Source: an uncultured Dehalococcoidales bacterium (GTDB taxonomy: Bacteria; Chloroflexota; Dehalococcoidia; Dehalococcoidales; BS750m-G39). From it: a stretch of DNA of 64,000 nucleotides. Below are positions 3,122-61,929 of the stretch, in pieces. The stretch covers positions 3,726-67,725 of the forward strand of contig CAZDHX010000005.1 in NCBI GenBank assembly GCA_964505425.1. Direction: 5' to 3'. Below the pieces are notes generated by a model. The model was not told where the DNA came from. It ran no database searches and saw only the letters and a list, made by a program, of their open reading frames with translations. Each line of letters starts with the position of its first letter. Position 1 is the stretch's first letter. The position numbers were made by a program, and so were the translations under genes.

Positions 3122-3167
3122 GATGCTCCTTCACCCCATTATAACACTCGGCTAGTGCGAGTTACAC

Positions 3168-7181: not shown

Positions 7182-7267
7182 CAACCTCACCCCCTTTGTC
7201 CCCCTCTCCACTCTTGGAGAGGGGGAAGTGAGGGTTTTGAAGGGGCGAAGCCCCTTCAAACTACCCC
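7182..7267. repeat. Composite GC-rich hairpin intergenic repeat, copy B
   Basis: CAACCTCACCCCCTTTGTCCCCCTCTCCACTCTTGGAGAGGGGGAAGTGAGGG followed by TTGAAGGGGCGAAGCCCCTTCAAACTACCCC. It fills the whole hisA-hisI spacer, and its arm GGGGGTGAGG is positioned as the SD of hisI. Confidence 0.85.
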
Positions 7268-11960: not shown

Positions 11961-12940
11961 CCGGACTATCTGATTCATATCAGCGCCCGATAAACTATCT
12001 GCGCATATCGGTGACCGACCGCTGTAACCTGCGCTGTGTTTACTGTATGCCGGCGGAGGGCATCAACCTGATGTCGCATGAGGATATTCTCAGCTACGAG
12101 GAGATTTACACCGTAGCCCGGGCGGCTGCCGGGCTGGGGATAAATAAGCTCAGGCTCACCGGCGGCGAGCCCCTGGTAAGGCTGGGCTTGCCCGAGCTGG
12201 TAAAGATGCTGGCTCAGATAGAGGGCATAGATGATATTTCCCTGACGACAAACGGCGTCTTGCTCAGCCGCTATGCCGCCGAGCTGAAAGATGCCGGCTT
12301 GCGGCGAATTAACGTTAGTCTGGATACCCTTAAACCGGAGAGGTTTAAGCTGATTACCCGCCTCGGCGATAACCTTGACGAAGTGCTGGAAGGCATTGAG
12401 GTCGCCAAGAAGGTGGGGCTTGAGCCGGTCAAGCTTAATACGGTGGTCATGGCGGGCATCAACGATGATGAGCTCCTTGATTTCGCCAGTAAGACCGTCG
12501 CCGAGGGGTGGCATGTCCGCTTTATTGAGCTTATGCCCCTGGTCGGCAAGGATACTACCCCGCGTTTTGTCCCTGCAAGCGAGATGAAGCGGCGGCTTGA
12601 GCCGTTGGGGGAGCTTACCCCCTGCCTGCCCAGCGTGGGTAATGGGCCAGCCAAGTATTTCCGCCTTCCCCGGACCAAGGGCGATATCGGCTTTATTACC
12701 CCTATCAGCGAACATTTCTGCTTTCAGTGCAACCGGATGCGGCTGACGGCTGACGGCAAGCTCCGCCCCTGCCTATTAAGCGACTACGAGGTTGACCTCA
12801 AGCAGCCTTTGCGCGGCGGTATATCTTTAGGCGGGCTGAGGAAGCTGATTAAGCAGGCGGTAGCTAATAAGCCGCAGCGCCATCAGCTAGCCGAAGGTTC
12901 CGTCCCTAAACGGCGCCCGTTCTCTCAGGTTGGGGGATAA
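11957..12940 (+). CDS. moaA: GTP 3',8-cyclase (molybdenum cofactor biosynthesis protein A)
   Basis: YLRISVTDRCNLRCVYCMP radical SAM motif and C-terminal CxxCNRxRLTADG. ATGA overlap with rdgB. Confidence 0.9.
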   Translation: MTGLSDSYQRPINYLRISVTDRCNLRCVYCMPAEGINLMSHEDILSYEEIYTVARAAAGLGINKLRLTGGEPLVRLGLPELVKMLAQIEGIDDISLTTNGVLLSRYAAELKDAGLRRINVSLDTLKPERFKLITRLGDNLDEVLEGIEVAKKVGLEPVKLNTVVMAGINDDELLDFASKTVAEGWHVRFIELMPLVGKDTTPRFVPASEMKRRLEPLGELTPCLPSVGNGPAKYFRLPRTKGDIGFITPISEHFCFQCNRMRLTADGKLRPCLLSDYEVDLKQPLRGGISLGGLRKLIKQAVANKPQRHQLAEGSVPKRRPFSQVGG

Positions 12941-12943
12941 AAA

Positions 12944-13837
12944 ATGATTAAAATATACACTGACGGTGCTTACAACCCGGTTCCTGGTCAAGGGGGGTGG
13001 GGGGCGGTTATCGTTGAGGGCAAGCAGAAGCGGGTCTTCTCCGGCACGGCGCAGAAAACGACCTCTAACCGCATGGAGATTGCCGCTGCCCTTGAGGGCA
13101 TTCTCAAGACCAAGCCCGGCGCCGAGATAACCCTATATACCGATAGCCAGTACCTCTTCGGCTGCATGGCTTCGGGGTGGCAGAGAAAAGCCAACCGCGA
13201 CCTGTGGCAGCAGCTGGACAAGGCGGCCAACCAGCGTCAGGTGAGGTGGGAGTGGATTGATGAGGATTCAAGGAATGCCTTCCATAAGGAAGCCCATGAC
13301 CTGGCGAACAGTTCGGCCAGCCAGGGTGGGGCAGTGAAAAAGGGAGCCGCCAAGACCGCAGCCAAAGAATTGACCCATGTAGATGCTGCCGGTCACCCGC
13401 GCATGGTGGATATTTCGGGGAAACCTGATACCCAGCGTGAGGCGGTGGCTAAGGGGGTGGTCAGGATGCAGCCCTCAACCCTTGCCCGGCTGAAGAAGGG
13501 TATGATGGCCAAGGGGGACGTGCTGACGGCAGCCCAGCTCGCCGGCGTTATGGCTGCCAAGCAGACGCCTAGTTTAATACCCCTCTGCCACCCGATTCTT
13601 ATCGGGGATATCAAGGTTGAGTTCAGCCTTGATGAGGCAAATAGCGTGGTGGAGATTACCACCACGGTGAAGAGTTTGGGTAAGACCGGGGTGGAGATGG
13701 AGGCGCTCACCGCCACCGCCGTTACCGCCCTCACCATCTATGATATGTGCAAGGCGATAGACCGGGGTATGAGGATAGAGAATATCCGTCTGGTCAAAAA
13801 AAGTGGTGGCAAAAGCGGCACAATTAGTCTTGAGTAA
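12944..13837 (+). CDS. moaC: Fusion protein: N-terminal RNase HI-like domain plus C-terminal cyclic pyranopterin monophosphate synthase (MoaC)
   Basis: Residues 1-125 carry IYTDGA, GGWG, NRMEIAA, YTDSQY and HDLA (RNase H DEDD pattern). Residues 135-297 carry LTHVD...MVDISGK...PLCHPI...EMEALTA...YDMCKA (MoaC). Confidence 0.85.
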
Positions 13838-13893
13838 AGATAGTTATTGGTATATACTACCTTCACTACCACTAAACATGTTGGGGGTGTGCC

Positions 13894-15006
13894 ATGAAGC
13901 TCTCATGTCTTCAGGAGAACCTGAATCGAGGACTTGGTGTGGTGGGGAAGGCGGTGGCTACCCGAACCACCCTTCCCATAACCAATAACGTCCTCTTAGC
14001 TACTGAAAAGTCCCGCCTGAAGTTAGTTGCCACCAATCTTGAGATGGCTATCAGCTGCTGGATTGGGGCCAAGGTGGAGGAGGAGGGGGCAATCACCGTT
14101 CCCGCCCGCCTTCTAACCGAGTTTGTCAGCTCCCTCCCCAGCGAGAAGGTTGACATCGCCCTTTCCCCTCAGACCAAGACCCTGGGGCTGAAGTGTGCCC
14201 GCTTTGAGGCGCGAATCAGCGGCATTGATGCCAAGGACTTTCCACCGATACCCAAGGTGGCTGATGGTATCACTACCAAGGTTGAGGTAGAGGAACTGCG
14301 TCAGGGGATTACTCGGGTCGCCTTTGCCGCTGCCACTGAGGAGTCCCGCCCCGTGCTCACCGGCGTTGACGCCAAGTTTGAGGGTGATTCATTGACGCTG
14401 GCGGCGGCTGATGGCTTTAGGTTAGCCGTCTATAAGCTACCCCTTGCCTCCCCGGTCAGTAAAGAGACCGAGGCTATTATTCCCGCCCGCGCCCTCTCTG
14501 AGCTAAGTCGGCTTATAGCGGACGAGGAGGCGGTGGAGATAACGGTGAACCCGAGTAAGGGTCAGGCTCTATTTCGCCTGAAGAATATTGAGCTGGTTTC
14601 CCAGCTGGTTCAGGGCACCTTCCCCAATTATGCTCAGCTTATCCCCCAGGGCTACACCACCCGAGCCGTGGTCAGTGTCGGTGATTTCCTGAGGGCGACC
14701 AAGACCGCCTCCATATTTGCCCGCGACGGCAGCGGTATCGTCCGCCTGATGATAGCCCCGGGCAAGCTGGTAGTTTCCGCCCGCTCGGAGGAGATTGGCG
14801 ATGATGTTGGCGAGATTGATGCCGAGGTTGAGGGGGAGGAGGCGAAGATTGCCTTCAACGGCAAGTACCTCACCGATGTCCTGGGCGTCCTTGGTGAAGC
14901 CCAGGTAGCCCTGGAGGCTACCAACCCGTCAAGCCCTGGCGTTGTCCGCCCGGTGGGGGTGGATAACTATATCCACGTCGTCATGCCCATGTTTGTGCAG
15001 TGGTAG
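13894..15006 (+). CDS. dnaN: DNA polymerase III beta sliding clamp
   Basis: 370 aa with MKLSCLQENLNRGL, NVLL, PVLTGV, FNGKYL and VVMPM, typical of DnaN. The last 26 nt overlap the convergent serine recombinase ORF. Confidence 0.9.
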   Translation: MKLSCLQENLNRGLGVVGKAVATRTTLPITNNVLLATEKSRLKLVATNLEMAISCWIGAKVEEEGAITVPARLLTEFVSSLPSEKVDIALSPQTKTLGLKCARFEARISGIDAKDFPPIPKVADGITTKVEVEELRQGITRVAFAAATEESRPVLTGVDAKFEGDSLTLAAADGFRLAVYKLPLASPVSKETEAIIPARALSELSRLIADEEAVEITVNPSKGQALFRLKNIELVSQLVQGTFPNYAQLIPQGYTTRAVVSVGDFLRATKTASIFARDGSGIVRLMIAPGKLVVSARSEEIGDDVGEIDAEVEGEEAKIAFNGKYLTDVLGVLGEAQVALEATNPSSPGVVRPVGVDNYIHVVMPMFVQW

Positions 15007-16462
15007 GTAATTCTAGGGGAATCACGCCTTGAATCTCTACTCTCTCAGTGCTGGCATAAACTTTGATGTCTAGCGCATCCAGAGCCAGCTTTATAATCTC
15101 CGGCGTGCTATCTTGTAGGTTCTTCAATACTCGGTCATAAAGCTGACCTAACCTAATTTTGGCCTCCGCAAGGTTCGCAATATTGTCCCTAGTATTGAGA
15201 AAGTCATTCAGTTTGGCTTCATCTTCATGGCGCAGGCGTTTGAGATTATTCAAGCGGTCTAAGACTTCGTCCTTTCCAAACTCTCCCAACTCTAGAGCTT
15301 GAAGTAAATTGGTTCGACGTTGCTCATAGTTCCGCAAGTTCTTTTCTAGTTCCTTAATCTCAGCCTCTATTGCATCCAAGTTTCCAATGTCGCTTGCTTC
15401 GGCAAGTTGACTCAGTATGATTTCAGGGTTCGCTAATACCGTTTTAGTCTTACTCCAGACTATTTCTTCAAGTTCTCCAGCTCGTACGTACCGGGCTTGG
15501 CATTTCTTACTGGTATTCTCATGGGGTCTGGCACTACTGCACTGGTAATAACGGTATTTTTTATTCAGACAGTGTCCAACAAGTGGCTTTCCGCAAATCG
15601 CACAGTAGGCATGACCTGTAAGCAGGTATTCATGTTTTGGCCGTCCCATTCTTACCCTCGGCCTATTGAGCTGTTCATTGGCGGCTTGGAATATATCTTC
15701 GCTTACTATAGCTGGGGTCACGTTCGGCAATAGGGTATTCTTGAAGTAGGTATTACCGATATAGCCGGAATTGCGGACAATTCGCCTGATAGTGAGGCTA
15801 TGCCATAATTTACGCTTGCTTTCATCGTTTTTGGTGGCTTTGGTGTGCACTCCGCTCTGGTTCAGTCTACGTGCTATTGATACCAAGCTTTCCCCGATTG
15901 CTACCCGGTTGAAAATCTCTCGTACTATAACGGCTTCAACCTGGTTTACCTCACGCCTTTTTGTCTCTTTATTCCAGTCATAACCGTACATGCCGACACC
16001 GGTACCCTGGGGCATTATGCCGCCATTCAGCTTTGCACGTTTCCCTCGCATGGTGCGTTCTCGTATTTTTTCCGCTTCCAGCTTTGAGGCAAAGCCCCGA
16101 ATGTAACTAATCAACTTGCCAAGCTCTGAACTATCTACCGTCTCAGTAACAGCCTCAAGTCTGACGCTGTGCTTTTCAAGTTCCTGAGTAAGTATGACGC
16201 CGTGAGTAGGGTCACGTGATAGCCGATCCAAGCAGTAAACCACTACAATGTCAATATCCCCGATTCGTATCAATTCCCGTAGCTCGTTTAGCTTGGGACG
16301 TTCAAGTGTTAGCCCTGAGTATGCCTCAGAAAAGCGGTAGGCTACGTTATAGCCCTTATCTTGGCAATATGCAAGGCAAGCCTCAAGCTGTGTGTGTAGA
16401 CTAGTTCCTTCCTGTTCTTGGTCTTCGGTGCTTACTCTACAATAGGTAGCTGCGGTTTTCAT
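14981..16462 (-). CDS. Large serine recombinase
   Basis: YCRVSTEDQ catalytic-Ser motif, a resolvase N-domain, a recombinase domain, a Zn-ribbon (CAICGKPLVGH...YYQC) and a C-terminal coiled coil. The start is taken at ATG 16462 (ATGA overlap with the upstream small ORF, GGGGG SD) rather than the track start 16483. Confidence 0.9.
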   Translation of the reverse strand: MKTAATYCRVSTEDQEQEGTSLHTQLEACLAYCQDKGYNVAYRFSEAYSGLTLERPKLNELRELIRIGDIDIVVVYCLDRLSRDPTHGVILTQELEKHSVRLEAVTETVDSSELGKLISYIRGFASKLEAEKIRERTMRGKRAKLNGGIMPQGTGVGMYGYDWNKETKRREVNQVEAVIVREIFNRVAIGESLVSIARRLNQSGVHTKATKNDESKRKLWHSLTIRRIVRNSGYIGNTYFKNTLLPNVTPAIVSEDIFQAANEQLNRPRVRMGRPKHEYLLTGHAYCAICGKPLVGHCLNKKYRYYQCSSARPHENTSKKCQARYVRAGELEEIVWSKTKTVLANPEIILSQLAEASDIGNLDAIEAEIKELEKNLRNYEQRRTNLLQALELGEFGKDEVLDRLNNLKRLRHEDEAKLNDFLNTRDNIANLAEAKIRLGQLYDRVLKNLQDSTPEIIKLALDALDIKVYASTERVEIQGVIPLELPTTAQTWA

Positions 16463-16608
16463 TTCTTCTTTACCCCCTTCCACTTTGGCTTATTCCAGTA
16501 GGGAGACCGGCACTTAGGACAGGTCTTAGGTTCTTTTGGCTGGCGCGGTACCCAAATATGCCCGCAACGTAGGCATTTAAGTATCGGCAGTTCAAAGCTC
16601 TTGTTCAT
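16459..16608 (-). CDS. Small zinc-ribbon protein, translationally coupled to the recombinase
   Basis: MNKSFELPILKCLRCGHIWVPRQPKEPKTCPKCRSPYWNKP has two CxxC pairs. Its stop overlaps the recombinase ATG. The track start at 16644 is probably too far upstream because it overlaps the promoter. Confidence 0.55.
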   Translation of the reverse strand: MNKSFELPILKCLRCGHIWVPRQPKEPKTCPKCRSPYWNKPKWKGVKKK

Positions 16609-30279: not shown

Positions 30280-31281
30280 ATGATAGCTCAGTTCTTCATC
30301 ACATTTAAGGATTATCTCATTGCAGTATTGCCCTTCCTGGTAACAGGGTTTTTCCTGAGTGGTTTAATCTATGAGTTTGTCCCCACTAGCTGGGTTGAGA
30401 GACACCTTGGCGGGAAGGGGATAAAGCCCCTGATCTACTCCACCCTTATCGGGACAGCCCTCCCTATCTGCTGCCTAGGCTCTCTCCCGGTGGCGGTGAG
30501 CCTCCACCAGAAAGGGGCGAGATTGGGTTCAGTTTTGGCCTTTCTGGTGGCAACACCAGCTACCTCTATTACTGCTCTCCTGGTGTGCTATGCTCTGCTC
30601 GGCATAAAGTTCACCGCCTTCATATTCTTTGCCGTGATAGCGATGGGATTGAGCATGGGTTTTATCGGGAATTTGCTCAGGGTCAAGCCGAAAGCCTCCC
30701 TTTCCCGGGATAAACAGCTAGCTACTGACCCCGTATGCGGAATGAGTGTAGAGACAGGCAAGGCAGTGAAAACAGAATACCGAGGGGATGCTTATTATTT
30801 CTGCTGTTCCCACTGCCAGCAGGCGTTTGAAAGTAGACCCCAAAAATATCTGGGGATTTATCCCAGGAACATTGCTCACCGGATGAAGCATGTTTTCAAA
30901 TACGCCTTCGTGGATATGGTTAAGGAGATGGGCCCCGAGCTGCTTTTAGGCTTGGCTTTAGCAGCACTGGTGGCCACCATTACCCCGGTCGGGGAGTTCA
31001 TAGGAGATTATTTTAGCGGGGGTTTAGGCTATCTATTCAGCCTTGTCTTCGGTCTCATGATGTATATCTGCTCTACAGCTAGCGTTCCTCTAGTTCACGC
31101 CTTCCTATCCCAGGGAATGAATATTGGGGCGGGAATGGTATTGCTAATAGTCGGCCCAGTTACTAGCTGGGGGACAATTCTAGTCTTACGCAAGGAGTTT
31201 GGTGGCAGGACATTGCTTATCTATTTGGCAATCATCTGTGTAATGGCTCTGGCTCTGGGCTATTTCTTTTCCCTGATATAA
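30280..31281 (+). CDS. DUF318/ArsP-like permease with an embedded YHS (TRASH-type) metal-binding domain
   Basis: Multi-TM protein with LPICCLGSLP and ICSTASVPL permease motifs. The central loop is DPVCGMSVETGKAVKTEYRGDAYYFCCSHCQQAF (YHS). Confidence 0.75.
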   Translation: MIAQFFITFKDYLIAVLPFLVTGFFLSGLIYEFVPTSWVERHLGGKGIKPLIYSTLIGTALPICCLGSLPVAVSLHQKGARLGSVLAFLVATPATSITALLVCYALLGIKFTAFIFFAVIAMGLSMGFIGNLLRVKPKASLSRDKQLATDPVCGMSVETGKAVKTEYRGDAYYFCCSHCQQAFESRPQKYLGIYPRNIAHRMKHVFKYAFVDMVKEMGPELLLGLALAALVATITPVGEFIGDYFSGGLGYLFSLVFGLMMYICSTASVPLVHAFLSQGMNIGAGMVLLIVGPVTSWGTILVLRKEFGGRTLLIYLAIICVMALALGYFFSLI

Positions 31282-31742: not shown

Positions 31743-32753
31743 ATGGCAAAAAGATTACTTGCTTCATTTCTGATCGGGGCTTTAGTAATTATTACCTTAA
31801 TGGTAGGTGGCTGTTATTATAAAAACGCTGAAAAACCGGTTGGCATAGCTGTTGAATTCAATAATCATGCTGCCTGTGCTTATATAGCCGACGCTAAGGG
31901 CTGGTTCGAAGAGGAAGGGCTGGAGCTAGAGCCTGTCTTCCAGATTTACGAGTCAGGGGCGGCTGTTGCCGCCGCTTTAGCCCGGGGAGATATTCAAATT
32001 GGCTATATGGGGTTGACAGGAGCCATTATGACCTATGCTCAAGGAGTACCAATAAAGGTGATAGCCGGAATTCATAAGTACGGTTATGGTCTCGTTGCAA
32101 AACCAGAAATAAAAGAGATAGAAGATTTGCACGGCAAGACCATTGGCTGTCTAAGGGAGGGTACTGTGACCGACCTCCTGCTTAACCTTATGATAGACAA
32201 ATATCAGCTTAAGAATGTAACCATTCTCCGCATGAATCCCACCGAAGAGGTCATTGCTTTAATTACTGGGAGACTAGATGCTGCATTCCTTCCTGAACAA
32301 CACGCCACCATGGCTGAACTCCAAGGATTTCCTATGCTCATTAACAGCCAAGACTTATGGTCTGGGATGCAGGGGGACGTTTTGGTAGTTAGGGCTGAGG
32401 TTATAGAGGACAATCCTGAGCGGGTAGAGCGATTAATGGGAGTTACCCAACAGGCAACAGCTTGGGTAAACGAGCACCCCGCTGAGACAGCGGAAATTAT
32501 GGCTGGGCAATTACAAGCTGCTGGGGAGAGTATCTTTCCCATCGAGGAAGCAGGGCTTGCCGCAAGCCTAGAAATCACCCCCCAAGTTATATCCCGCTCC
32601 ATGGATAGGATTGAATATACCATGAGTATTGACCCAAAGGTAGTTCAAGATACGATAGACTATATGGTGGAGTTAGGCTATATAAAAGAGGGGATCAAGG
32701 CTGCAGACATCCTAGATTTAGCCTATCTCCGGGAGGGAGGGCAAGATGGTTAA
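31743..32753 (+). CDS. NMT1/THI5-like (SsuA/TauA-type) substrate-binding lipoprotein, orphan
   Basis: Signal/lipobox-like N-terminus (LMVGGCYY) and a periplasmic-binding fold pattern (GDIQIGYMG...). No ABC permease or ATPase gene is adjacent. Confidence 0.7.
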   Translation: MAKRLLASFLIGALVIITLMVGGCYYKNAEKPVGIAVEFNNHAACAYIADAKGWFEEEGLELEPVFQIYESGAAVAAALARGDIQIGYMGLTGAIMTYAQGVPIKVIAGIHKYGYGLVAKPEIKEIEDLHGKTIGCLREGTVTDLLLNLMIDKYQLKNVTILRMNPTEEVIALITGRLDAAFLPEQHATMAELQGFPMLINSQDLWSGMQGDVLVVRAEVIEDNPERVERLMGVTQQATAWVNEHPAETAEIMAGQLQAAGESIFPIEEAGLAASLEITPQVISRSMDRIEYTMSIDPKVVQDTIDYMVELGYIKEGIKAADILDLAYLREGGQDG

Positions 32754-32877
32754 AAATGAAGTAGAGAGATTTCCTGTATTACGGCTTACCAGGGAAGGCA
32801 CAGCCACCGGTGCTCTCCAAAGTGCCCTGATTACCTGTCCGTAGCTAGAGCCGAAAGAATAAAAAGGGAGGGAGAGT

Positions 32878-33174
32878 ATGCCTATCAAGTGGAGCACCGT
32901 CAGGGTGAGCGAGACTGTGGATGAGATTGAGGAGCTTATGAACTCCATCAGACCGACCTTGTGGCGGATGCGTGAGAAGGCGGGAGAGCTGAGACGGAAA
33001 CCCAACCTACCGGGGTATATTGACCAGCCCACTGTCACGATGACCTCTAAGGTGGATAACTTCAACACCTATATAAAGGGCTACATTGAGCGTATCCGCA
33101 ACCTCATACCCAAAGAGACACTGGAGGAGGAGCGCAAGGCTTTGGAGTATGGCAGACAGCAATCGCTAATCTAA
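32878..33174 (+). CDS. Hypothetical protein
   Basis: 98-aa track ORF with a GGGAGGGAG SD, followed by a strong terminator. No family recognised. Confidence 0.45.
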   Translation: MPIKWSTVRVSETVDEIEELMNSIRPTLWRMREKAGELRRKPNLPGYIDQPTVTMTSKVDNFNTYIKGYIERIRNLIPKETLEEERKALEYGRQQSLI

Positions 33175-33238
33175 AAACTGCCGGGAATTGAAAGGGTAAC
33201 TATGCCCAAAATTAGCTTCTAGTGGTTAACCAAGTATA

Positions 33239-33362: not shown

Positions 33363-34031
33363 ATGAATTATAAATTAAGCCCATCAGACCTTACGTTCCT
33401 TTATGAAGGTTGCAAGCGGTGTTTCTACCTAAAGATGGTCCACAACATAGCTCAACCTTCAATTCCTTTACCCTCTATCTTTGCCCAAATCGCTGGGCTC
33501 TTAAAGAACCATTATGATGGCAAACAAACGAGCGAATTACACGTTGACATTCCTCCGGGAACGGTGAGTCACGGTGAGAAGAGCGTCCGGTCTCAGATTA
33601 TCCAATTACCAAAGCATAATGATACCTGCTATATAAGTGGGAGATTTGACATTGTTGTTAGTTTTGAAGACGGAACCTATGGCGTCATAGACTTCAAGAC
33701 CAGTAATCCAAATACGGAATCCGCCAATCTTTACAGCCGGCAGCTACACGCCTATGCGTATGCCTTGGAACACCCCGACCCTGGTGCACTTGCTTTGTAC
33801 CCTGTTACAAAGCTAGGATTGTTGTATTTCTACCCCTCTAGAGTTGATCAGCAAAGTATTGAGCAGCTTTCCTACGAAGCTGATATTACTTGGGTTGAAA
33901 TCAAAAAGGACGAGCCAAGTTTCCTAAACTTCATAGATGAGTTATTGGATGTACTTGAATCGCCCCTAGCGCTGGAACATTCCCCTGATTGCCCATGGTG
34001 CAAGTATACCCAGAAATTGAGTAGCATTTAG
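33363..34031 (+). CDS. PD-(D/E)XK nuclease, Cas4/RecB-like, with terminal Cys pairs
   Basis: GRFDIV ... GVIDFKTS (D / DxK), QLHAYAYAL (QxxxY), N-terminal CKRC and C-terminal CPWC. Confidence 0.7.
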   Translation: MNYKLSPSDLTFLYEGCKRCFYLKMVHNIAQPSIPLPSIFAQIAGLLKNHYDGKQTSELHVDIPPGTVSHGEKSVRSQIIQLPKHNDTCYISGRFDIVVSFEDGTYGVIDFKTSNPNTESANLYSRQLHAYAYALEHPDPGALALYPVTKLGLLYFYPSRVDQQSIEQLSYEADITWVEIKKDEPSFLNFIDELLDVLESPLALEHSPDCPWCKYTQKLSSI

Positions 34032-34097: not shown

Positions 34098-34883
34098 TCA
34101 CAGCCAACGTCGCAAGTGCTTGAAAAAGGTTATCAGCGCAGAGGTCAAAGACAACCAAAGATGGAGCCGAACTTTATTCAGAGGACTCAAAGGCAGAGGG
34201 TCGCCTAAAATGAATGTCTCCCTATTACTGTAGAAGCGGTCGACAAATTCCTTTCTTAAGACTGGTCTTTGCTGAGCAGGATACAGCTTATTGGTTACTT
34301 GGCTCTCATATTGCCAAATAGCAGCCTTCTTGGCTTTCAACACATCTGAAATATCAACCACAAGTAATTTCGGTGCAACGTTGGGGGTGGGAATTGCCCA
34401 AACAAAATATTGGTAAAGCAACGTCTTTCTTCCCAATTTACGAAGCGCACTACGCACAATAAGGTGAGTTGCCACATGGTCAGGGTGTCTGTCCCCAATA
34501 TATGGAAGAAAGACTTCCGAGGGCTCGAATTGCTCCAAAATTTTTATTACGTCCGACATAGCTTCTCGTCTGTGCTTATACAGTGCGCCATCCTCTATGC
34601 CTAGAAAGAGGAGCCTACCTTTGTCAAGGCCTAACTTATGCATAGCTCGTTCTTCCTCAAGTTTCCTTTGCTTTGCCAGTTCGTCCGGAGTGGGATTTTG
34701 CTTGATTCCAAATGTCAGCAGGTGAGAATTTCTGCCATCGGTCATGCATACGACAAAAACTTCTTTCCCGGCTTTCGTTCTTAGCGCTATCGTTCCTCCA
34801 CAACCAAATGTCGCATCATCCTTATGTGGGGCAAAAACCACGGAACGCGCCACTGTACTAAGTTCGACGTCCGAGTAGCTCAA
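34098..34883 (-). CDS. PIG-L/LmbE-family N-deacetylase
   Basis: VFAPHKDDATFGCGG (PHxDD-type motif) and GDRHPDHVATH (HPDH). TTG start with a GAGGTGAAG SD. Confidence 0.8.
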   Translation of the reverse strand: MSYSDVELSTVARSVVFAPHKDDATFGCGGTIALRTKAGKEVFVVCMTDGRNSHLLTFGIKQNPTPDELAKQRKLEEERAMHKLGLDKGRLLFLGIEDGALYKHRREAMSDVIKILEQFEPSEVFLPYIGDRHPDHVATHLIVRSALRKLGRKTLLYQYFVWAIPTPNVAPKLLVVDISDVLKAKKAAIWQYESQVTNKLYPAQQRPVLRKEFVDRFYSNRETFILGDPLPLSPLNKVRLHLWLSLTSALITFFKHLRRWL

Positions 34884-34999: not shown

Positions 35000-35788
35000 T
35001 CAATGAGGCGGAAAGATGAAGCGAACTACCGCTTGAAAATTCTTGCCCAAGCATTGAGCTTTGCTGACTTCTTTGTACAGTTCGATCAAGGGTTCTGAGT
35101 TAGTCGTCACCCAGCTTACTCCGACCGTACCTTCGCCGTGGCATCCTGAAAGAGCGACTGCAGTTTTTCCCGATCCGAACGGGCTTTCTGCTTTTGTGAT
35201 AATAGCTAGGTCCAAGGCCCAAGTGCCACTCTTACCCCCTGGGCTAGGCTTTTCACCTACCATCTGTTGAGATACCACGTCAAATACCACCCAGTTAACC
35301 CTTTCATAAGGATTTAGTCTTATCAGGTTTAGTCTGGCCAAATCTGGAACGACAGGCCCCTGCTCAGTGAACTCGGCAAAAATGAACCGCCCCTGTCTCA
35401 GCAAGGGCTCTACTGGCAGCAAGGGGCGCCATCCTCCCACAAACAATGGGTGCTTCCCAGTATCTAGTGCAATTGGGAGCTTGCGTAGCCTCGTGCGGAG
35501 CGTCTTGCGGAAAGCAGCTACTACGGGGTGCACAAAGGCGTTGCTCCATGCGAAGGTATCCATAGGGGACGGCGCCATCCCGTATCTAAATCCAATCACT
35601 GCTTGACTTAATTCTTTTCGGTCCAAGAATATTTCTCGGTTGTAGCCGTCTACGGCATCCCAATCTTTCTTTTTTGCCAGTGCGGTTCTTACTGCCTTAG
35701 CAACTGCGATAGTCCCACCAACTATCTCAACAACCGTGATTACACCGCTGGGCAATAGTTGCGCTGCCACAGCTACGGTTTCCCACAT
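35000..35788 (-). CDS. Hypothetical protein with N-terminal hydrophobic helix
   Basis: Track ORF trimmed to ATG 35788 (AGGAGGG SD 6 nt upstream): MWETVAVAAQLLPSGVITVVEIVGGTIAVAKAV... No family recognised. Confidence 0.55.
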   Translation of the reverse strand: MWETVAVAAQLLPSGVITVVEIVGGTIAVAKAVRTALAKKKDWDAVDGYNREIFLDRKELSQAVIGFRYGMAPSPMDTFAWSNAFVHPVVAAFRKTLRTRLRKLPIALDTGKHPLFVGGWRPLLPVEPLLRQGRFIFAEFTEQGPVVPDLARLNLIRLNPYERVNWVVFDVVSQQMVGEKPSPGGKSGTWALDLAIITKAESPFGSGKTAVALSGCHGEGTVGVSWVTTNSEPLIELYKEVSKAQCLGKNFQAVVRFIFPPH

Positions 35789-36290
35789 TTTTGTCCCTCC
35801 TGTACCCCCCAACCCTTTGTGTCCGCATAGGTCTACCCTACTTTTGTGCCTAGAAGCCTATCAGCTTATCCTACAGGGTGTGTCGCCTAAGACCCCCCGA
35901 GTACTCAACATTCTACGCCTTGACCGACTCCGTTTCAATCCTCTTTAACTAACGCTTCTCGCCGGAGCATATCTAATTCCCGTAATAGGATTGATCCCAA
36001 TCTTGCTCCCCGTCAACTCGCAGCGACCTAGAAAGCGGCAAATCAGTCCCCTCTGGGGGCGGGCAAGCCCAGCTACTGCAAACAGAGTCATCGTAGCTCT
36101 CATCAGCTTAACCCGCAACCATCTTGGAACTGATTATATCAGATGCCAACAGCCAATCGCGAAACCGGTCACGTCGTCTAGAACCCAAGCAGCATGCCAT
36201 AGGGAATGAGACAGCATAGCTCAACAATAGTCAGTTTTGTGCAACGATAATTCAGCACATCGCATGGAGCGCTAGCTTATTACGTGCAGC

Positions 36291-39200
36291 CTAGTCTTGG
36301 CCTTCTACTACAGCTATTTCGGCCTCAGTTAATCCGTACAACTTGTAGACTATCTGGTCGATGAGCTTGTCGGTCAGTTCAATGCGCTCCAGCAGGGGCC
36401 TTAGCTTGGTTACGGATGCCTGAAACTCACCCCGGATGTTCTCCTGTGGCCCCCGGCGAGTCACATCAATGTCTTTGGCTGCCTGGATTGCCCGTCTGTT
36501 TTGCTCCAGAGCGCCAAAGAAGCCCTCCCACCCCACGTCTGTTTTCCAGTATTCCCTCACCTTAGTCTTATTTTTAAGATCCTCAACATTAACGGCAAGA
36601 TAACTCTCCAACCAAGAAAGAAATCCCTTTATCTCCACCTGCTTCTCCTTGTGAAGCCTGGTCATCTCTTCTGCTAGGTAAGCGAGCAGGTCATGGATAA
36701 CGTCTGACTGCTCCTTCTCTGTCTCTGGGGAGCTATCGGGCTTGTGGGGTAGACGCTGGCTGACGAAGGACATGAGTTGGCCCCAATCTTCACTTTTAAC
36801 GTATTCCTGATAAAGCCTTTGTTCGTCTTCCATGAGCTGCTTGCGCTCTGGCTTTGGTGTTGAAAATTTTATCTGACGAATAGGGAGTACCTCTAGTTGT
36901 GGAGCTTGGAATTGGAAATATCCGCCGCCCATTCGCAGGGCACCAAAATACTCGCAATAAATCATGTTCATGAGGGATGAGTTCAGTACTGCACCTAGGT
37001 ATCCTAGGCTATATCTACCACCATAAGCGCAGTTTGTATTCGCTGAAGCAAACTCTCTGGCAAAGTCAGTGAATCCTTCGAGACGCAGTGCCATTTTAGC
37101 AAAAATAATCTTAGGCTGTTTGTATAGTTCACGACGAGACTCCGAGACTGCACTGTTAGCAGTATCAAGATAAGGTTCTAAGTAGCGTGAACCTCTGTGG
37201 TCAAGAGGCTCGACGCCCCAGAGTGAGCAATATCTATCAATAAGGCCAGTGTTAATAAATTTTTGTTTGTGCGGTCCCGGCTTTCCGCTGATAGCAGGTG
37301 TAAACTCGTCTGATTCAGCTGCTGTGCTAGTTGCCTGAACTGTTGCTATCGCTGAAAGTGGTTGAGATTTTGCACCAACTTTCACTACCAATTCGAAGTT
37401 AGATGATAAAAGAAATCCCCACAGCAAGTCGGGTAAGGCTGTAAGATTCGCGCTCTCATGGACGGCAACCTTGCCAATCATCTTTTCGTTACTCTCAGCA
37501 GTAAAAATCTTCACCGAGTAATCACCTGCTTTTCCGCTCCCACGCTTAAAGACGGAGACAACAGGATAAACGAAGGGATCTTCAAAGACCTTTACCTGCG
37601 AACAATCATAGAGACTCACAAGTTCATGTTGCGAAACAATCATATTCCGAAATGCAACAGCATATGGAGCTGATAAGAACTTATTTGGAGTAATTAAAGC
37701 AGTCATCCTTTCCCTGGCAACCAGTGAGAGGCCTAGTTCGAAGAATAAAAGATAAATGTCGTAAGCACCAGCGGCACTGGTAAACTTAGTTTTCCAAAAA
37801 GGTTTCTCATATGGCGACAAAATTCGATTCAATTCTATTGCATTCACATACGGCGGATTCCCTACTACGGCACTAAAGCCTGGATTCGGCAGCCGCTGTC
37901 CGTTTCGGTCAAAGAACACTTCAGGGAACTCCAGCTCCCACTGAAAAAATTGTCGCTCCTCACCTATCTTCATACTACTAGCAAACCAGGGTTGCTTTTC
38001 TATCTTTGCCCACTCTGGTTCTGGAGCACGGATGTTGGTAAGGAGATTGTCGTAATCTTGAGACTCCACCTCATTCCCAAAGTAGGTGCTGGTCCAGATG
38101 TGTGCCACTTCCTTATAGCGTTTCAAAATATCACGGGCGATGCCATAAAGTTTTTCCTTCTCCTGGATATCCTGAATTTTGTCAGAGGATATGGCGGCGA
38201 TGCGGAAGTAATTGTCTACCGCCGTAGCGACATTCTGGACAAACCAAGCTTCCCACATCGTGGTGGGCTGGACTTCCGGCAGTTTCTTTCCCAAGCCCTT
38301 CATCTTAAGCTCTTTACCCGGCAAAGCACCCAGCTCTGAAATCCTGGCTCCAATCAGAGAGTTGCCACAGCGCAAATGGTGGTCTAAGAAGCTTAGTGGT
38401 TTGTCAACTGAGACAGTGGAAAGCCACAAGGACAGCTTGGCAAGATCGACCACTAAGGGATTGAGATCAACGCCGTAAATGCAGCGCTCTACTACCTCGC
38501 GGCGTGCCCATCGTATCTCGTCCTCCTCCATTTCCCTGGGGTCTTCACCTAAAGCCTCGACAAGGGCTCGTGCCAGAAAGTCCGTCGCCTCCACCAAGAA
38601 ATGCCCTGACCCCATTGCCGGGTCAAGGACTCTCATGGAAAGGATGGTATCAATCAAATTCCCATCGGAAGCCTTCGCCTCTTCAATAAGAGGCCCGACA
38701 GTATTACTGACTATGTATTTGACGATGTAGTCGGGGGTGTAATAGGAGCCGGTAGCTTTACGCTCTCCCTTGTCAGTTTCCAGATAAACAGAGCCAGCAC
38801 GATAGGTCTTAAGTGCCTTGCGATCACCCAGTTCCGTAATGGGGATGAACTTCTCCCGCTTAGCATCTTTTATTACCGCAATATCCTTAGCGGCGTAGTG
38901 AGGCTGGTGCTCAAGAAGCCCCTCGTATATGGAGCCCAGCTCCCTTACGCCCAGATCTCTATAGCTTACGAAGCCACGTCCAGTGCGTCCGGCAGCCCGT
39001 GCCCGCGCTAGTTGGTCGATAGCTGCTGCCAGGTAGGAGTCACCTATCTTCCATGCAGCAAGCTTCTGGTGTTCTTTCTGGTCATCGAAGAGCCTGCCGT
39101 TATAAGGTGGAATATGCAGGAAATCGTCGCCATTGTTGATAAGGTTGAACAGCTCCCTAAGCCGTGACCAATACATAGTAGTGGTTGGGCTAAGCTGGGA

Positions 39201-39890
39201 CTCGAATGGCTCCTTCGCAGCTATCTCGTGTGTTAAAGCCCGCAGGCTATAGGTGCCCCAGTAAGTAGGGTTAGTCACCGGCAGGAATTCTCTGGCCTCA
39301 GCATAGAGAGTAAAGAGCAAGCGACGCTCGTAATGGGCCTTACCCTTGACACACTCCAGCTCTTGATTTGGAGCTAACATTTCCGCATTTCCGGTCCGCT
39401 TATAAGATACGGTAAATTTACCGTTATCTGCCACGTTACTAATTGGAGCGCCACGCATCGGCATGATCCTAACGTTAGCATCAGCTATCTGAACATTCCC
39501 ATCTTTGATTTCGGGCTTAGGCATTTTGCGGAATTCTGAATCAATGGAGTAAATTAACGGGTCTTCCTTTATCCATTTAGCATAGGCACCCGAAACAGAG
39601 CCATGCCAATCTTCTGGAAGAGGAATAGAAGGATAGACTTGGCCCTGGCCATTAACATGAGCGATTACGAAACAATTTATCGTCTCCGAAGGAATAATAC
39701 ACCCGGAAAATCCCATACCTCCTTTGGCAGGTTTCCACCTTGTTATTTCTTTTGCATTTGGGTCTAGCCATAGTCTGTCTTCCCCCGACCAAGCTTGTTG
39801 TGCTCTTTTTAGATCGCGGATATAGGCTTCGTCAAAGGGGCTTTTCCAGAAATACGAAGTCCAGACTTGTACCGGAAGACGCATCATCAA
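36291..39890 (-). CDS. Type IIG / PglX-like gamma-class N6-adenine DNA methyltransferase (1199 aa) with an unrecognised ~185-aa N-terminal domain
   Basis: IPPYNGRLFD, TGSYYTPDYIV, DPAMGSGHFL (motif I), VVGNPPYV (motif IV) and the C-terminal IVYKLYGLTEAEIAVVE tail, typical of Eco57I/MmeI/PglX-type enzymes. No obvious PD-(D/E)XK motif at the N-terminus. Confidence 0.85.
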   Translation of the reverse strand: MMMRLPVQVWTSYFWKSPFDEAYIRDLKRAQQAWSGEDRLWLDPNAKEITRWKPAKGGMGFSGCIIPSETINCFVIAHVNGQGQVYPSIPLPEDWHGSVSGAYAKWIKEDPLIYSIDSEFRKMPKPEIKDGNVQIADANVRIMPMRGAPISNVADNGKFTVSYKRTGNAEMLAPNQELECVKGKAHYERRLLFTLYAEAREFLPVTNPTYWGTYSLRALTHEIAAKEPFESQLSPTTTMYWSRLRELFNLINNGDDFLHIPPYNGRLFDDQKEHQKLAAWKIGDSYLAAAIDQLARARAAGRTGRGFVSYRDLGVRELGSIYEGLLEHQPHYAAKDIAVIKDAKREKFIPITELGDRKALKTYRAGSVYLETDKGERKATGSYYTPDYIVKYIVSNTVGPLIEEAKASDGNLIDTILSMRVLDPAMGSGHFLVEATDFLARALVEALGEDPREMEEDEIRWARREVVERCIYGVDLNPLVVDLAKLSLWLSTVSVDKPLSFLDHHLRCGNSLIGARISELGALPGKELKMKGLGKKLPEVQPTTMWEAWFVQNVATAVDNYFRIAAISSDKIQDIQEKEKLYGIARDILKRYKEVAHIWTSTYFGNEVESQDYDNLLTNIRAPEPEWAKIEKQPWFASSMKIGEERQFFQWELEFPEVFFDRNGQRLPNPGFSAVVGNPPYVNAIELNRILSPYEKPFWKTKFTSAAGAYDIYLLFFELGLSLVARERMTALITPNKFLSAPYAVAFRNMIVSQHELVSLYDCSQVKVFEDPFVYPVVSVFKRGSGKAGDYSVKIFTAESNEKMIGKVAVHESANLTALPDLLWGFLLSSNFELVVKVGAKSQPLSAIATVQATSTAAESDEFTPAISGKPGPHKQKFINTGLIDRYCSLWGVEPLDHRGSRYLEPYLDTANSAVSESRRELYKQPKIIFAKMALRLEGFTDFAREFASANTNCAYGGRYSLGYLGAVLNSSLMNMIYCEYFGALRMGGGYFQFQAPQLEVLPIRQIKFSTPKPERKQLMEDEQRLYQEYVKSEDWGQLMSFVSQRLPHKPDSSPETEKEQSDVIHDLLAYLAEEMTRLHKEKQVEIKGFLSWLESYLAVNVEDLKNKTKVREYWKTDVGWEGFFGALEQNRRAIQAAKDIDVTRRGPQENIRGEFQASVTKLRPLLERIELTDKLIDQIVYKLYGLTEAEIAVVEGQD

Positions 39891-40021
39891 ACTCCTGTCA
39901 TACGAATTGTCATCGCAACTTCAAGCCTCTCATTTTAGTATAAGCTTATTATGTGGAAATAAAAAGATCCCGCTGCCGGGCAGAAGCCGCCGAGGAACCC
40001 CGAGGAAGCAGGATTCCAGGC

Positions 40022-40213
40022 ATGAACATGAGCAGCAATCAATTACCTCTTCCTAACAACGATCCGGCGCGGAAGAATGTTGACTATTCTGTTCCGCCAG
40101 AGCCAATATGTGACTCTGACGCCGATGCCGAACTGGCCCAGGCCGATATTGACCACCTGTGTCGGGTCTGGGCCGGGGTGGGACGGGCGATCCTTCTCAG
40201 GAGGAGCAGTTAA
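40022..40213 (+). CDS. Small acidic hypothetical protein directly upstream of the recombinase (possible accessory/directionality factor)
   Basis: Within track ORF 39953..40213, the stop TAA lies immediately 5' of the recombinase ATG (TAAGATG). No family recognised. Confidence 0.3.
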   Translation: MNMSSNQLPLPNNDPARKNVDYSVPPEPICDSDADAELAQADIDHLCRVWAGVGRAILLRRSS

Positions 40214-40214
40214 G

Positions 40215-41786
40215 ATGATTAGCAGAGAGAAGCCTACGATTGGCAAAGGTAACCGGACTGCGACCATCATCAGGGTATCGGACGAGAGCCAGGTGGAGGG
40301 ACACTCACTGGAAGCCCAACGGTTAGGAATTGAGCACTGGTGTCAGCAACGAGGATACGTTCTGTTCAAGGAATACACCGAGGCTGGGGTATCCGCCCAC
40401 ACCGACGAGATCGAGAAGCGGCCGGAACTCCTCCGGCTCCTCCAAGATGCGGAACAAGGGGAGTTCGACATCGTGGTAGTGCACACACTCGACCGATTGG
40501 CCCGGAAACTAAGCATTCAGATGCAAGCCCTATCGCGTTTAGCTAAGGCCGGCGTTGGTTTCGCGAGCGTGAACGACCCTTTTGACGCCACCACTCCTCA
40601 AGGCCGCCTGATGCTCAACCAAATGGGCTCTTACAACGAGTTCTTCTCCGAACTCTTGGGCATCCACGTCAGCAAGACCTTCCGATTCATGGCTGAGTCG
40701 GGGTTGACAGTCGGGCCGGTACCCTTCGGATATCGGCGCCAAGAAAAGCAGCTTCCGCCTGTGAAGGAGGAGCGGGAAGCGGAAGCTGTGAAAGAAGTAT
40801 TTCAACGTCGGGCGGGAAGTCAGTCCACAGGCGAAATCGCTGCCTGGCTCAATGCCCAGGGTTTTTGCACCAGAGAGGGCCATGCCTTCACAGCCCATGC
40901 GGTGAAAGATATCCTGAATAATCGCTATTACTGCGGGTATGTGAAGTACCACGGCGAAGAGTATCCCGGTAAGCACGCCGTCATCATCTCGGAAGACCTG
41001 TTCCAGCGTGTACAAGCCCGAAGGCAACGGCGGCAGCAGGTACGCTCGGTACACGGACCGAAGGGTTTACTCCAGGGGATCATAGCTTGCTGGCACTGCG
41101 GTAATCGGCTTCAGTCAGATCGCCACCGTCAGCTGGTACCCCTCTATCGGGAACGGCATGCTCACGAGTGTCCCACGAACAATTCGTCTATTGTGGCGGA
41201 GGTCATTGATAAGCAGATGGCAACGATTATCCATTCCCTGGGATTGCATCCGAAATGGAGGCAAAGGATGGCCGAGCTTGCCGCAGCAAACTATGACGGG
41301 CCAGACCCAAAAGCGCTAAAAGAGAAGCGCCGTCGCCTCGGCCGGGCTTACGCCGACGGGGCATTTACCGATGAGGAGTATCAAAGACGACTGGCGGAGA
41401 TCAATCATCATCTTGATCAGGCGTGCACCGTAACACCACCCGCTGTCGAAGCAGCTGTAGAACTCTTTACGAATATCCCCATGCTCTGGGCAGAGGCAAC
41501 TCCGGATGAGAGAAGACAGTTGGTGAACCCACTCGTCGAGCTGGTTTACGTAGATCTTGAGACAAAGCGCGTTGCCGCGTTCAAGCCGGCACCGGCATTC
41601 CGGGTGCTGTTTGGTACAGGGATAGAGGTGGCCCCAAACGCACCGGTGCTATTGCTACCCTCGGGAAGAGAAACCCGAGAGAATGTTGGAGATGGTGGAG
41701 ACGGGGGAGAGTTGAACTCCCCGTCCAAAGGAAGCTGCCCAGAATATACTACAAGCTTAGTCAGCTCTTTAATCTCACCCGGCTAG
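40215..41786 (+). CDS. Large serine recombinase whose 3' end overlaps ssrA
   Basis: IIRVSDESQ catalytic motif, FDIVVVHTLDRLAR, a recombinase domain and a Zn-ribbon (CWHCGNRL...HEC). The start is ATG 40215 (AGGAGGAG SD). The last 94 nt read antisense through the tmRNA 3' end. Confidence 0.9.
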   Translation: MISREKPTIGKGNRTATIIRVSDESQVEGHSLEAQRLGIEHWCQQRGYVLFKEYTEAGVSAHTDEIEKRPELLRLLQDAEQGEFDIVVVHTLDRLARKLSIQMQALSRLAKAGVGFASVNDPFDATTPQGRLMLNQMGSYNEFFSELLGIHVSKTFRFMAESGLTVGPVPFGYRRQEKQLPPVKEEREAEAVKEVFQRRAGSQSTGEIAAWLNAQGFCTREGHAFTAHAVKDILNNRYYCGYVKYHGEEYPGKHAVIISEDLFQRVQARRQRRQQVRSVHGPKGLLQGIIACWHCGNRLQSDRHRQLVPLYRERHAHECPTNNSSIVAEVIDKQMATIIHSLGLHPKWRQRMAELAAANYDGPDPKALKEKRRRLGRAYADGAFTDEEYQRRLAEINHHLDQACTVTPPAVEAAVELFTNIPMLWAEATPDERRQLVNPLVELVYVDLETKRVAAFKPAPAFRVLFGTGIEVAPNAPVLLLPSGRETRENVGDGGDGGELNSPSKGSCPEYTTSLVSSLISPG

Positions 41787-42046
41787 CCTCAACTGACCGA
41801 GTCTAGCCAGACCAGCCGATTCTTCTTTCACCACCCTCATCGGCGTTGGGGTGGTGGCACCTCAACTCTTCGGCACCCGGTCCCCGCCCGTTGAGGAGAG
41901 GCTTGGGTGGGCGCGCCGCCTATTTAATTAGGCTGCGTAAGCGAATTCAGGTTCGCCAGTTATTTTTACCACTTGTTTTATGAGGTTAGCGGCACCTCAG
42001 CCTGCAATCCTGTAGCCTACCTCCCCTGTCGAACCCACGCGTCCCC
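41693..42046 (-). ncRNA. ssrA: tmRNA (transfer-messenger RNA)
   Basis: Minus strand reads 5' GGGGACGCGTGGGTTCGACAGG ... GGACGGGGAGTTCAACTCTCCCCCGTCTCCACCA 3'. The acceptor stem pairs with a G3:U wobble (Ala identity), and there is a T-arm and CCA. The likely tag ORF at 41928-41957 is GGC GAA CCT GAA TTC GCT TAC GCA GCC TAA (GEPEFAYAA). Lies 16 nt downstream of smpB. Confidence 0.85.
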
Positions 42047-42062: not shown

Positions 42063-42527
42063 CTACCTCCTTCTCAGCCGGCGGTTTTTCATGGCTCGCT
42101 CCATTTCCCTTTCCGTCTCCCGGCGGGTTATTGCCTCCCGCTTATCGTAGAGCCTTTTACCCCTGCCCAGCGCCACCTCAACCTTAGCCCGGCTATCTTT
42201 AATATATAACTTAACCGGCACCAAAGTAAAGCCCCGCTCCACCACCCGGCTGGTAAGCTCGTTAATCTGCTTGCGATGCAGCAAAAGCTTGCGGGGTCGG
42301 GTCGGCTGGTGGCTCATGTGGCTGCCCGCCTCGTAGCGGGCGATATGGGCGCCAACCAGCCACAATTCACCCTTCTCCGGTCTAACATAGGCATCAGACA
42401 GGCTTACCCTCCCCGCCCGGATTGACTTTATCTCGGTACCGGTAAGGGCAATGCCGGCTTCCACGCCCTCGCTCAGATTATAATTGTGGTACGCCTTACG
42501 ATTGGTAGCGACTGTCTTTATGACCAC
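42063..42527 (-). CDS. smpB: SsrA-binding protein
   Basis: NRKAYHNYNL...GTEIKSIR...LLLHRKQI is the canonical SmpB pattern. Confidence 0.95.
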   Translation of the reverse strand: MVIKTVATNRKAYHNYNLSEGVEAGIALTGTEIKSIRAGRVSLSDAYVRPEKGELWLVGAHIARYEAGSHMSHQPTRPRKLLLHRKQINELTSRVVERGFTLVPVKLYIKDSRAKVEVALGRGKRLYDKREAITRRETEREMERAMKNRRLRRR

Positions 42528-42548
42528 AGCTAAATTATAGCATATTAG

Positions 42549-42681
42549 TCACCCCATCCCCCTTTATCCCCCTTTGATAGTGAGCTAACTTAATAGGGTG
42601 TTTAAGAGAAGCACCAGCCCCTCTTTTATTTTATCTTCCCCCTCTCCAAGAATGGAGAGGGGGATACAGGGGGTGAGGTTG
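42549..42681. repeat. Composite GC-rich hairpin repeat, copy D (reverse orientation) plus an extra forward arm
   Basis: The forward arm is TCACCCCATCCCCCTTTATCCCCC (42549-42576). It is followed by GGGTGTTTAAGAGAAGCACCAGCCCCTCTT and TTCCCCCTCTCCAAGAATGGAGAGGGGGATACAGGGGGTGAGGTTG. Confidence 0.8.
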
Positions 42682-50505: not shown

Positions 50506-50596
50506 GGGTGTCCAAGAGGGGCGCTTTCTCCTCTTCTATATCCTCCCCCTCTCCTTTGAAGCCTTGAAGGAGAGGGGGATAAAGGGGGTGAGGTAG
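50506..50596. repeat. Composite GC-rich hairpin repeat, copy E (reverse orientation)
   Basis: GGGTGTCCAAGAGGGGCGCTTTCTCCTCTT followed by TCCTCCCCCTCTCCTTTGAAGCCTTGAAGGAGAGGGGGATAAAGGGGGTGAGGTAG. Confidence 0.85.
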
Positions 50597-50605
50597 ATAA
50601 ATAAA

Positions 50606-61842: not shown

Positions 61843-61929
61843 CAACCTCACCCCCTTTATCCCCCTCTCCAATCTTGGAGAGGGGGAAAGATATTAAAAA
61901 GAGGGGCTTGCGCCCCTCTTAAACACCCC
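61843..61929. repeat. Composite GC-rich hairpin repeat, copy G (best-preserved, type copy)
   Basis: CAACCTCACCCCCTTTATCCCCCTCTCCAATCTTGGAGAGGGGGAAAG (module A) followed by AAAAAGAGGGGCTTGCGCCCCTCTTAAACACCCC (module B). Confidence 0.85.

Follow-up and report, generated by a model that had tools for sequence, protein, structure and literature searches.

A large serine recombinase gene that reads into the tmRNA gene at the edge of a probable genomic island in an uncultured Dehalococcoidales bacterium

The stretch of DNA analysed here (the window; 64,000 nucleotides (nt) of contig CAZDHX010000005.1 from an uncultured Dehalococcoidales bacterium) carries a transfer-messenger RNA (tmRNA) gene, ssrA, and a large serine recombinase gene that converge on each other and overlap. 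The ssrA gene lies on the minus strand at 41693-42046. It is called by ARAGORN, matches Rfam RF00023 over its full length (163.9 bits, E 7e-65) and encodes the tag peptide GEPEFAYAA. Next to it smpB (42063-42527, minus strand; Pfam) opens a conserved chromosomal block (smpB, rpsB, tsf, pyrH, frr and further genes), which is syntenic with two close relatives (L086 and L087; loci are labelled L### throughout). The open reading frame (ORF) of the recombinase, on the plus strand at 40215-41786, shares 94 nt with ssrA, that is 31 codons and 1 nt. This tail (41693-41786, plus strand) covers, in antisense, the CCA end, acceptor and T-arm of the tmRNA, which homologues cross in three frames, and it reads ...GDGGDGGELNSPSKGSCPEYTTSLVSSLISPG. 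An earlier note made from the letters of this stretch had described the convergence of the two genes, the ORF stop at 41786 and the antisense nature of the last ~31 codons, and all of this is borne out by ARAGORN, Rfam, Pfam and the ORF itself. The block was also rightly said to be richer in guanine and cytosine (GC), with a GC content of 0.56 over 40-42 kb vs 0.44-0.51 over 33-40 kb. A small hairpin (CTCGGG-N8-CCCGAG) pointed out just beyond the tmRNA 3' end does exist at 41660-41679, but we judge it not significant. As a replacement ssrA terminator or attachment (att) feature it was rejected, with a fold z-score of -1.29, no T-run and no terminator call, and it has no counterpart in L001 and L081.

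The start of the recombinase is placed at the ATG at 40215 because the alignment of homologues begins there and a conserved small ORF ends at 40213, and the protein is therefore 523 aa long, with its body at about residues 1-492. It can be classed as a large serine recombinase, a group defined by a resolvase domain with the catalytic serine, a recombinase domain, a Zn-ribbon/coiled-coil C-terminus and a length of ~450-700 aa. The Pfam families Resolvase (PF00239, 1.6e-29) and Recombinase (PF07508, 1.5e-19) are both matched. The catalytic R-V-S residues and the cysteines C292, C295 and C319 are unchanged across 23 aligned homologues. The Pfam domain Zn_ribbon_recom is called in some homologues and not in the window protein. 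The top NCBIfam match is CcrB, under its cut-off. Nothing points to a prophage origin, the phage database giving only serine integrases that are at most about 30% identical.

A protein database search with the window recombinase returned 199 homologues, the named ones belonging to Chloroflexota/Dehalococcoidia, and 80 loci of recombinase relatives were fetched from species-representative genomes. Nineteen relatives at 35-76% identity adjoin, convergently, a tmRNA gene. Recombinases without a tmRNA gene nearby all adjoin partial ssrA copies of 17-27 nt, at most three per locus. Upstream of ssrA, the terminal 18-19 nt of the gene recur as exact direct repeats, at 5.4 kb in L001, 3.8 kb in L012 and 3.0 kb in L035. 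L001 belongs to the closest genome relative and its recombinase is 76% identical to that of the window; the 3' end of a second recombinase enters the repeat there, and the L001 islands thus lie in tandem. The ssrA-terminal core, TGGTGGAGACGGGGGAGA, whose direct repeats bound islands in these three loci, occupies 41693-41710 in the window and ends 1 nt into the T-loop. Repeats in the relatives end 1-2 nt inside the T-loop, which places the crossover as McMurdie et al. placed it for Dehalococcoides. We infer that the core at 41693-41710 is supplied by the attachment site of the element (attP), with the crossover 1 nt into the T-loop.

Directly before the core, the window's clade carries the 8-nt motif T(T/G)TGGAG(T/A) irrespective of the ORF frame. 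A motif kept in every frame is conserved at the level of DNA, as for a half-site of attP. In the window the element-side motif is TGTTGGAGA (41684-41692), just outside the ssrA end, at a place where empty sites have a terminator; given its conservation in the clade, it probably makes up the distal portion of the attP P-arm half-site. Sequence beyond the repeats or partial copies (...CCTGAAACAC; ...CTCCaCCTGAAACAC) resembles the 15-bp motif of McMurdie 2011 (PMC3146451).

The ssrA locus was compared between genomes with and without islands, as the earlier note had proposed. Three close host relatives, L085, L086 and L087, were located with SmpB as the anchor. They are syntenic with the window over smpB-rpsB-tsf-pyrH-frr and through ssrA, and L086 and L087 carry the identical tag peptide. 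In all three a terminator hairpin (GCGCCAGCC...GGCTGGCGC) stands within 7 nt of the CCA, and beyond it lie ABC-transporter, response-regulator and purL genes. The window, L001 and L081 have a recombinase 3' end in place of the terminator, and homology breaks exactly at 41693, the CCA end. A metagenome scan for terminator plus core revealed ten further empty ssrA sites; the same scan gave no displaced ssrA end or far junction (attR). There are thus 13 empty ssrA sites with the native terminator, and the arrangement is therefore acquired, not ancestral; the ancestral and immobile state that the note had named as fatal to its proposal is not what the close relatives display. The genes found beside the recombinase are different ones in each relative, L101 among them, where homology to the window starts only 55 nt upstream of the recombinase. 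The smpB-ssrA interval of L085 holds, at 10570-14222, an IS1595-family transposase and a HaeIII-type restriction-modification pair (~3.8 kb); by this content the interval reads as a second hotspot of the locus for the insertion of defence genes.

The foreign segment in the window is about 8.9 kb long (~32.8-41.69 kb) and carries defence-type cargo. Its left end was found by comparison with L088 and L089, which are syntenic with the window over 17.9-32.75 kb (Rrf2 ... AIRS, MOSC, NMT1) and then continue into a full fdhD, a formate dehydrogenase accessory gene. The window keeps only a 5' remnant of fdhD of ~20 codons (32746-32805, plus strand), homology to L088 and L089 stops at ~32797-32806, and unrelated DNA follows from there. 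The first 415 nt of this foreign DNA, comprising the left terminus (32797-33210, plus strand) and the 98-aa ORF in it (32878-33174), are ~90% identical to L085 5198-5612, where they stand in another context. This match marks them as a mobile-element terminus, though without an ssrA repeat. The rest of fdhD and the ancestral genes downstream of ssrA are nowhere in the window, while core genes including dnaN lie further left in it. The truncated fdhD and the missing ssrA-downstream genes mean that the copy is either rearranged or the contig misjoined.

For the second copy of the ssrA 3' end expected at the far end of an island, the window was searched by blastn-short, which gave only chance matches of at most 13 nt, and with an 18-mer at up to 3 mismatches, which gave only ssrA itself and an overlapping offset. 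The earlier note had found no such copy either, and it concluded that the far end was undefined or lacked a long repeat. The lack of a repeat in the window stands, but the far end can be located, since the foreign DNA ends at the truncated fdhD at ~32.8 kb. No degenerate form of the repeat turned up in the window either, and several candidates for far-end traces were rejected. A 28-nt, 71% match to the inside of ssrA at 36006-36033 is ascribed to chance and covers a part of ssrA that integration never duplicates. The 10-nt CACCGGTGCT common to 32806-32815 and 41641-41650 is judged to be chance or coding (Ala-Pro-Val), because the crossover of the relatives lies in the T-loop. Short repeats inside the foreign segment look like chance. 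The presence of dnaN near ssrA in L004, L015 and L030 was set aside as a clue to an inversion; these are distant lineages, with dnaN on the smpB side.

Taken together, we consider it probable, with good confidence, that 32.8-41.69 kb is foreign, that its right end is an attL-type junction of an island integrated in the T-loop region of the tmRNA gene, that the recombinase gene contains attP within its 3' end, and that this copy was later rearranged. The P arm would consist of the 8-nt distal motif and a 17-18-nt copy of the ssrA terminus, both of them in that end of the gene. Through a T-loop crossover the element would provide a new ssrA 3' end and leave the tmRNA intact, and the native ssrA end with its terminator would be moved to the far side of the island. 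The core is free of stop codons in every frame, and for this reason the recombinase ORF would run into the chromosomal ssrA until it meets a chance stop. The likeliest later event is an inversion or deletion that took the attR side and stranded the island end; left with no attR partner, the window copy has probably lost the ability to excise. Several points weigh against this reading. No attR, direct repeat, attP or excision junction was found for the window element in the window or in the metagenome scan. The position of the crossover is taken from the extents of repeats, and the likeness to the Dehalococcoides integrase DsiB is measured on the stand-ins L016 and L018. The left boundary is the terminus of an unrelated mobile element in fdhD, so that the 8.9 kb may be a composite of two elements, and the contig may be misassembled within the repeated 415-nt module.

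Read-through of this kind is also seen in the relatives of the recombinase. Homologues align well up to about residue 470, and beyond it their C-termini split into three classes (...GGDGGELNSPS..., ...WWRRGRVELPVQ... and ...LVETGENRTPRP...), which are the three frames of the antisense tmRNA 3' end. In the fetched relatives 37 recombinase-length ORFs cross an ssrA-terminal core, which belongs to an intact ssrA in 29 cases and to a partial copy in 8. Their frames are used 17, 12 and 8 times and their stop codons come 23-426 nt past the start of the core. More distant relatives (~26-34% identity) adjoin transfer RNA (tRNA) genes in Thermomicrobiales, Anaerolineae and other Chloroflexota. The recombinase is convergent with tRNA-Asp in L034, L036, L044, L047, L053 and L059, with tRNA-Ser-gct in L054, L055, L057 and L060, and with tRNA-Pro in L046. 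All of them (11/11) read 20-93 nt into the antisense of the tRNA 3' end, with tails such as GIRTRG and DSNPRS. An own stop codon before the att core is found in none of the 37 ORFs at ssrA-type cores and in none of the 11 at tRNA genes. We found no account of the wider family, of its tRNA-targeting relatives or of serine integrases aimed at tRNA T-arms in a literature that was covered in part. A broader proposal is that a large undescribed clade of Chloroflexota serine integrases targets the T-loop of tmRNA and tRNA genes with attP in its own 3' coding end, and that the missing stop is selected because it couples expression or the C-terminus to the integration state, for example by ssrA antisense silencing. 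We regard this proposal in full as unlikely.

A second, unrelated large serine recombinase of 500 aa is encoded in the window at 14981-16483 on the minus strand. It has Resolvase, Recombinase and Zn-ribbon domains, shares 25-30% identity with the ssrA family, sits in a low-GC patch at 15-18 kb and converges on dnaN (13894-15006, plus strand), whose last codons its ORF enters in antisense by 26 nt. This is the same read-through layout with a protein gene as the target. No repeat of the dnaN end is found within 19 kb.

The far end of the window copy could also be missing for a technical reason, the island being intact and mobile and its far end lost from view through a contig misjoin of the metagenome-assembled genome in the repeated module at ~32.8-33.2 kb. 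The junction between fdhD and the element was examined in an independent assembly, the Logan contig of run SRR14802574, which spans it with 0 mismatches and ends ~30 nt into the 415-nt module. Since the contig ends there, the module is seemingly repeated in the source metagenome, and a stop at this place is what a k-mer assembler does at a repeat; with the occurrence of the module in another context in L085 and the truncation of the flanks on both sides relative to relatives, this speaks for a misjoin. Against it, the very same contig confirms the step from the fdhD remnant to the element, no break in composition is seen within 33-40 kb, and no displaced ssrA end was recovered. On balance a misjoin around a mobile island appears quite unlikely, and we keep to a rearranged copy as the preferred explanation.

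A functional read-through, in which the C-terminus, the stop or the expression of the recombinase differs between the integrated state, with a tail from ssrA, and the excised state, with a tail from the opposite end of the island, or in which convergent transcription of the highly expressed ssrA silences the integrated recombinase, would be a built-in sensor of the integration state. The same idea was raised in McMurdie 2011 (PMC3146451). It draws on the lack of a stop in 37/37 ssrA-type and 11/11 tRNA members, on the protein-level conservation up to the core in some subclades (e.g. ...LLSEDETERLKVWSWW), and on the displacement of the native terminator, so that transcripts running on from ssrA would be antisense to the mRNA of the recombinase. 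It also draws on the 22 codons directly before the ssrA core (471-492; window 41134-41786 vs L101), where only 2/22 differ, against 206/470 in the gene body. This conservation is also compatible with a DNA constraint on the attP P arm or with a recent exchange of the segment. The tail itself argues the other way. Between the window and L101 (85% amino acid identity) the codon differences in the body, which is under purifying selection, number 135 synonymous and 71 non-synonymous, while the tail has 1 and 5, mostly non-synonymous. The tails occur in all three frames and span 23-426 nt. Tails at partial repeats are equally arbitrary, tracking ssrA for 17-27 nt and then departing, and tails at tRNA genes mirror that tRNA. 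Because the tail is ssrA, it is conserved solely as DNA, and with frame and length varying so freely the ssrA-antisense tail is noise and not a conserved peptide. The missing stop is most simply accounted for by a functional C-terminus that overlaps the DNA-constrained P arm, followed by a stop-free core. A functional read-through is thus very doubtful, and a regulatory role of the family-wide missing stop would be possible but unsupported. The overlap of the ORF with ssrA is best understood as a by-product of the position of attP and not as a coding feature. The C-terminal 31 residues do not recur at non-ssrA loci, a check suggested in the earlier note, and the overlap is not refuted on this ground. 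In practice, the last 31 residues of such proteins are not to be taken as real, and the odd annotation of a protein gene through an essential RNA gene is a structural outcome of where attP lies.

That the recombinase is an ancestral, domesticated and immobile gene native beside ssrA is hardly credible. In its favour, a far-end repeat is missing from the window copy, whose recombinase is intact and under purifying selection, and the arrangement recurs in many Dehalococcoidia. Against it, 13 close relatives have an empty ssrA with the native terminator (2 of them with the identical tag), cargo is unlike between near-identical modules, and relatives display exact direct repeats and tandem arrays.

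The island integrated at ssrA carries, next to the recombinase start, a small ORF of 86 aa (39953-40213, plus strand), which is found at 13/16 loci of the clade. Such ORFs (40-90 aa) abut or overlap the recombinase start, as in L081 (4487-4717), L082 (9798-10004) and L083 (9786-10004). They end in the motif ...HLCRVWAxVGRAILLRR, with the clade form (I/V)(E/D)HLCRVWAEVGRAIL(L/M)RR, and by position and conservation the small ORF is a candidate directionality or accessory factor. A 310-aa tyrosine integrase is encoded ~1.3-1.5 kb upstream of the serine recombinase in L082 (7784-8716), L083 (7617-8549) and L101 (334-1266), and the window's island is without it. The cargo begins with a single-polypeptide Type IIG restriction-modification enzyme of 1199 aa, Eco57I/MmeI-like with a DrmMI-like methylase region (36291-39890, minus strand; Pfam, PADLOC). 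It is followed towards the left by an ORF of 270 aa (35000-35812, minus strand), a PIG-L family deacetylase (34098-34883, minus strand; Pfam) and a Cas4-like PD-(D/E)XK nuclease (33363-34031, plus strand; Pfam, with weak Cas4 matches in PADLOC and NCBIfam). Pfam, NCBIfam and PADLOC gave no match for the 270-aa ORF or the two small conserved ORFs.

Outside the island, a permease of the ArsP type, into which a YHS metal-binding domain is inserted, is encoded at 30280-31281. The corresponding spot in L088 and L089 is taken by other genes, for a PKD/Big_9 protein or a 78-aa ORF, and the impression is of a small variable locus within an otherwise conserved sulfur/Fe-S gene block. Intergenic palindromic repeats of the form TCCCCCTCTCC-N6-GGAGAGGGGGA, with the flank ...CACCCCCTTTATCCCCCT, occur at 3165-3226, 7182-7243, 42637-42664 and 61843-61904, with more copies at 42537-42573 and 50569-50600; one copy stands between smpB and rpsB. 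They look like repetitive extragenic palindromic (REP-type) or terminator elements.

A comparison with known systems shows where this element stands. An attP within a phage gene, at its 3' end, with an altered C-terminus upon integration, is said to have been described by Broussard et al. 2013 in cluster G and related mycobacteriophages. The gene there is reportedly the repressor, in a system with a tyrosine integrase, and the change is said to remove a degradation tag with a demonstrated regulatory effect. For the window recombinase, in contrast, the sequence evidence argues against a functional consequence. Islands and prophages placed in tRNA and tmRNA genes by tyrosine integrases (Williams 2002, 2003; Islander/TIGER) share the targeting of the 3' part of the gene, the restoration of function by attP, a displaced fragment that marks the far end and an integrase gene that is usually beside the att site. 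They differ in having an unrelated enzyme and chemistry, in identity blocks that are usually longer and in an ORF that normally does not run across the crossover. The staphylococcal cassette chromosome mec (SCCmec; CcrAB/CcrC, Staphylococcus) belongs to the same broad recombinase branch, integrates at the 3' end of an essential gene present in single copy and forms tandem or composite cassettes. However, its target is rlmH (orfX) and not an RNA gene, CcrA and CcrB are both needed, and the ccr genes sit within the element without running over the att site.

The closest known systems are the ssrA-targeted islands of D. mccartyi with the integrase DsiB, described by McMurdie et al. 2009, 2011 (PMC2764846, PMC3146451); the same kind of island is reported for Dehalogenimonas (PMC13390414), as is a comparable case without a detectable repeat. 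In both the window and these islands a CcrB-like large serine recombinase that converges with ssrA marks the island edge, and its ORF meets no stop before attL and enters ssrA or the neighbouring island. The relatives of the window element add the ~20-nt repeat of ssrA's 3' end, the T-loop crossover and tandem islands downstream of ssrA, and lower island GC and variable cargo are shared as well. The overlap itself is not new here, being already published for Dehalococcoides: dsiB always overlaps attL or ssrA, with a divergent tail (McMurdie 2011, PMC3146451).

The differences from the Dehalococcoides type are equally clear. Its module consists of DsiB, DsiA, RecF-like, ParB, Mom and primase-like proteins and a pseudo-tRNA-Gly. 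L016 and L018, the stand-ins for the DsiB type, have gene modules fitting this published description, with a primase-like gene with DUF3631, Mom, ParB, a 209-aa resolvase and a 542-aa recombinase; a tRNA-Gly-like gene is present in L018 and L027. The window lacks the small resolvase DsiA, ParB, Mom, the primase-like gene and the pseudo-tRNA-Gly, and its clade has instead a conserved small ORF before the recombinase. The window recombinase is 35% identical to the DsiB-type protein of L016 and collinear with it over 499 aa (1e-97), and looks like a member of a sister clade of the DsiB type. The distal P-arm motif is GTTGGAG(A/T) against CGTGTTTC, the cargo consists of restriction-modification and nuclease genes and not reductive dehalogenases, and at up to 3 mismatches no far-end repeat of this copy turns up in the window. 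Of the earlier proposal that the mechanism is the same as in Dehalococcoides, the convergent recombinase, the relatives at ssrA or at partial copies in tandem and the empty sites agree with it; the recombinase is probably not a DsiB orthologue, the module is absent and the window copy is not demonstrably mobile. We therefore file the element as one that would work like a Dehalococcoides ssrA island and represents a distinct variant outside the DsiB/DsiA family. The mechanism known from Dehalococcoides reaches many other Dehalococcoidia, where a simpler module of one recombinase and a small ORF carries defence genes instead of dehalogenases. The tmRNA 3' end is nearly invariant in these genomes, and serine integrases with this end as their chromosomal site (attB) are possible landing-pad enzymes for hard-to-engineer bacteria, if their activity is confirmed.

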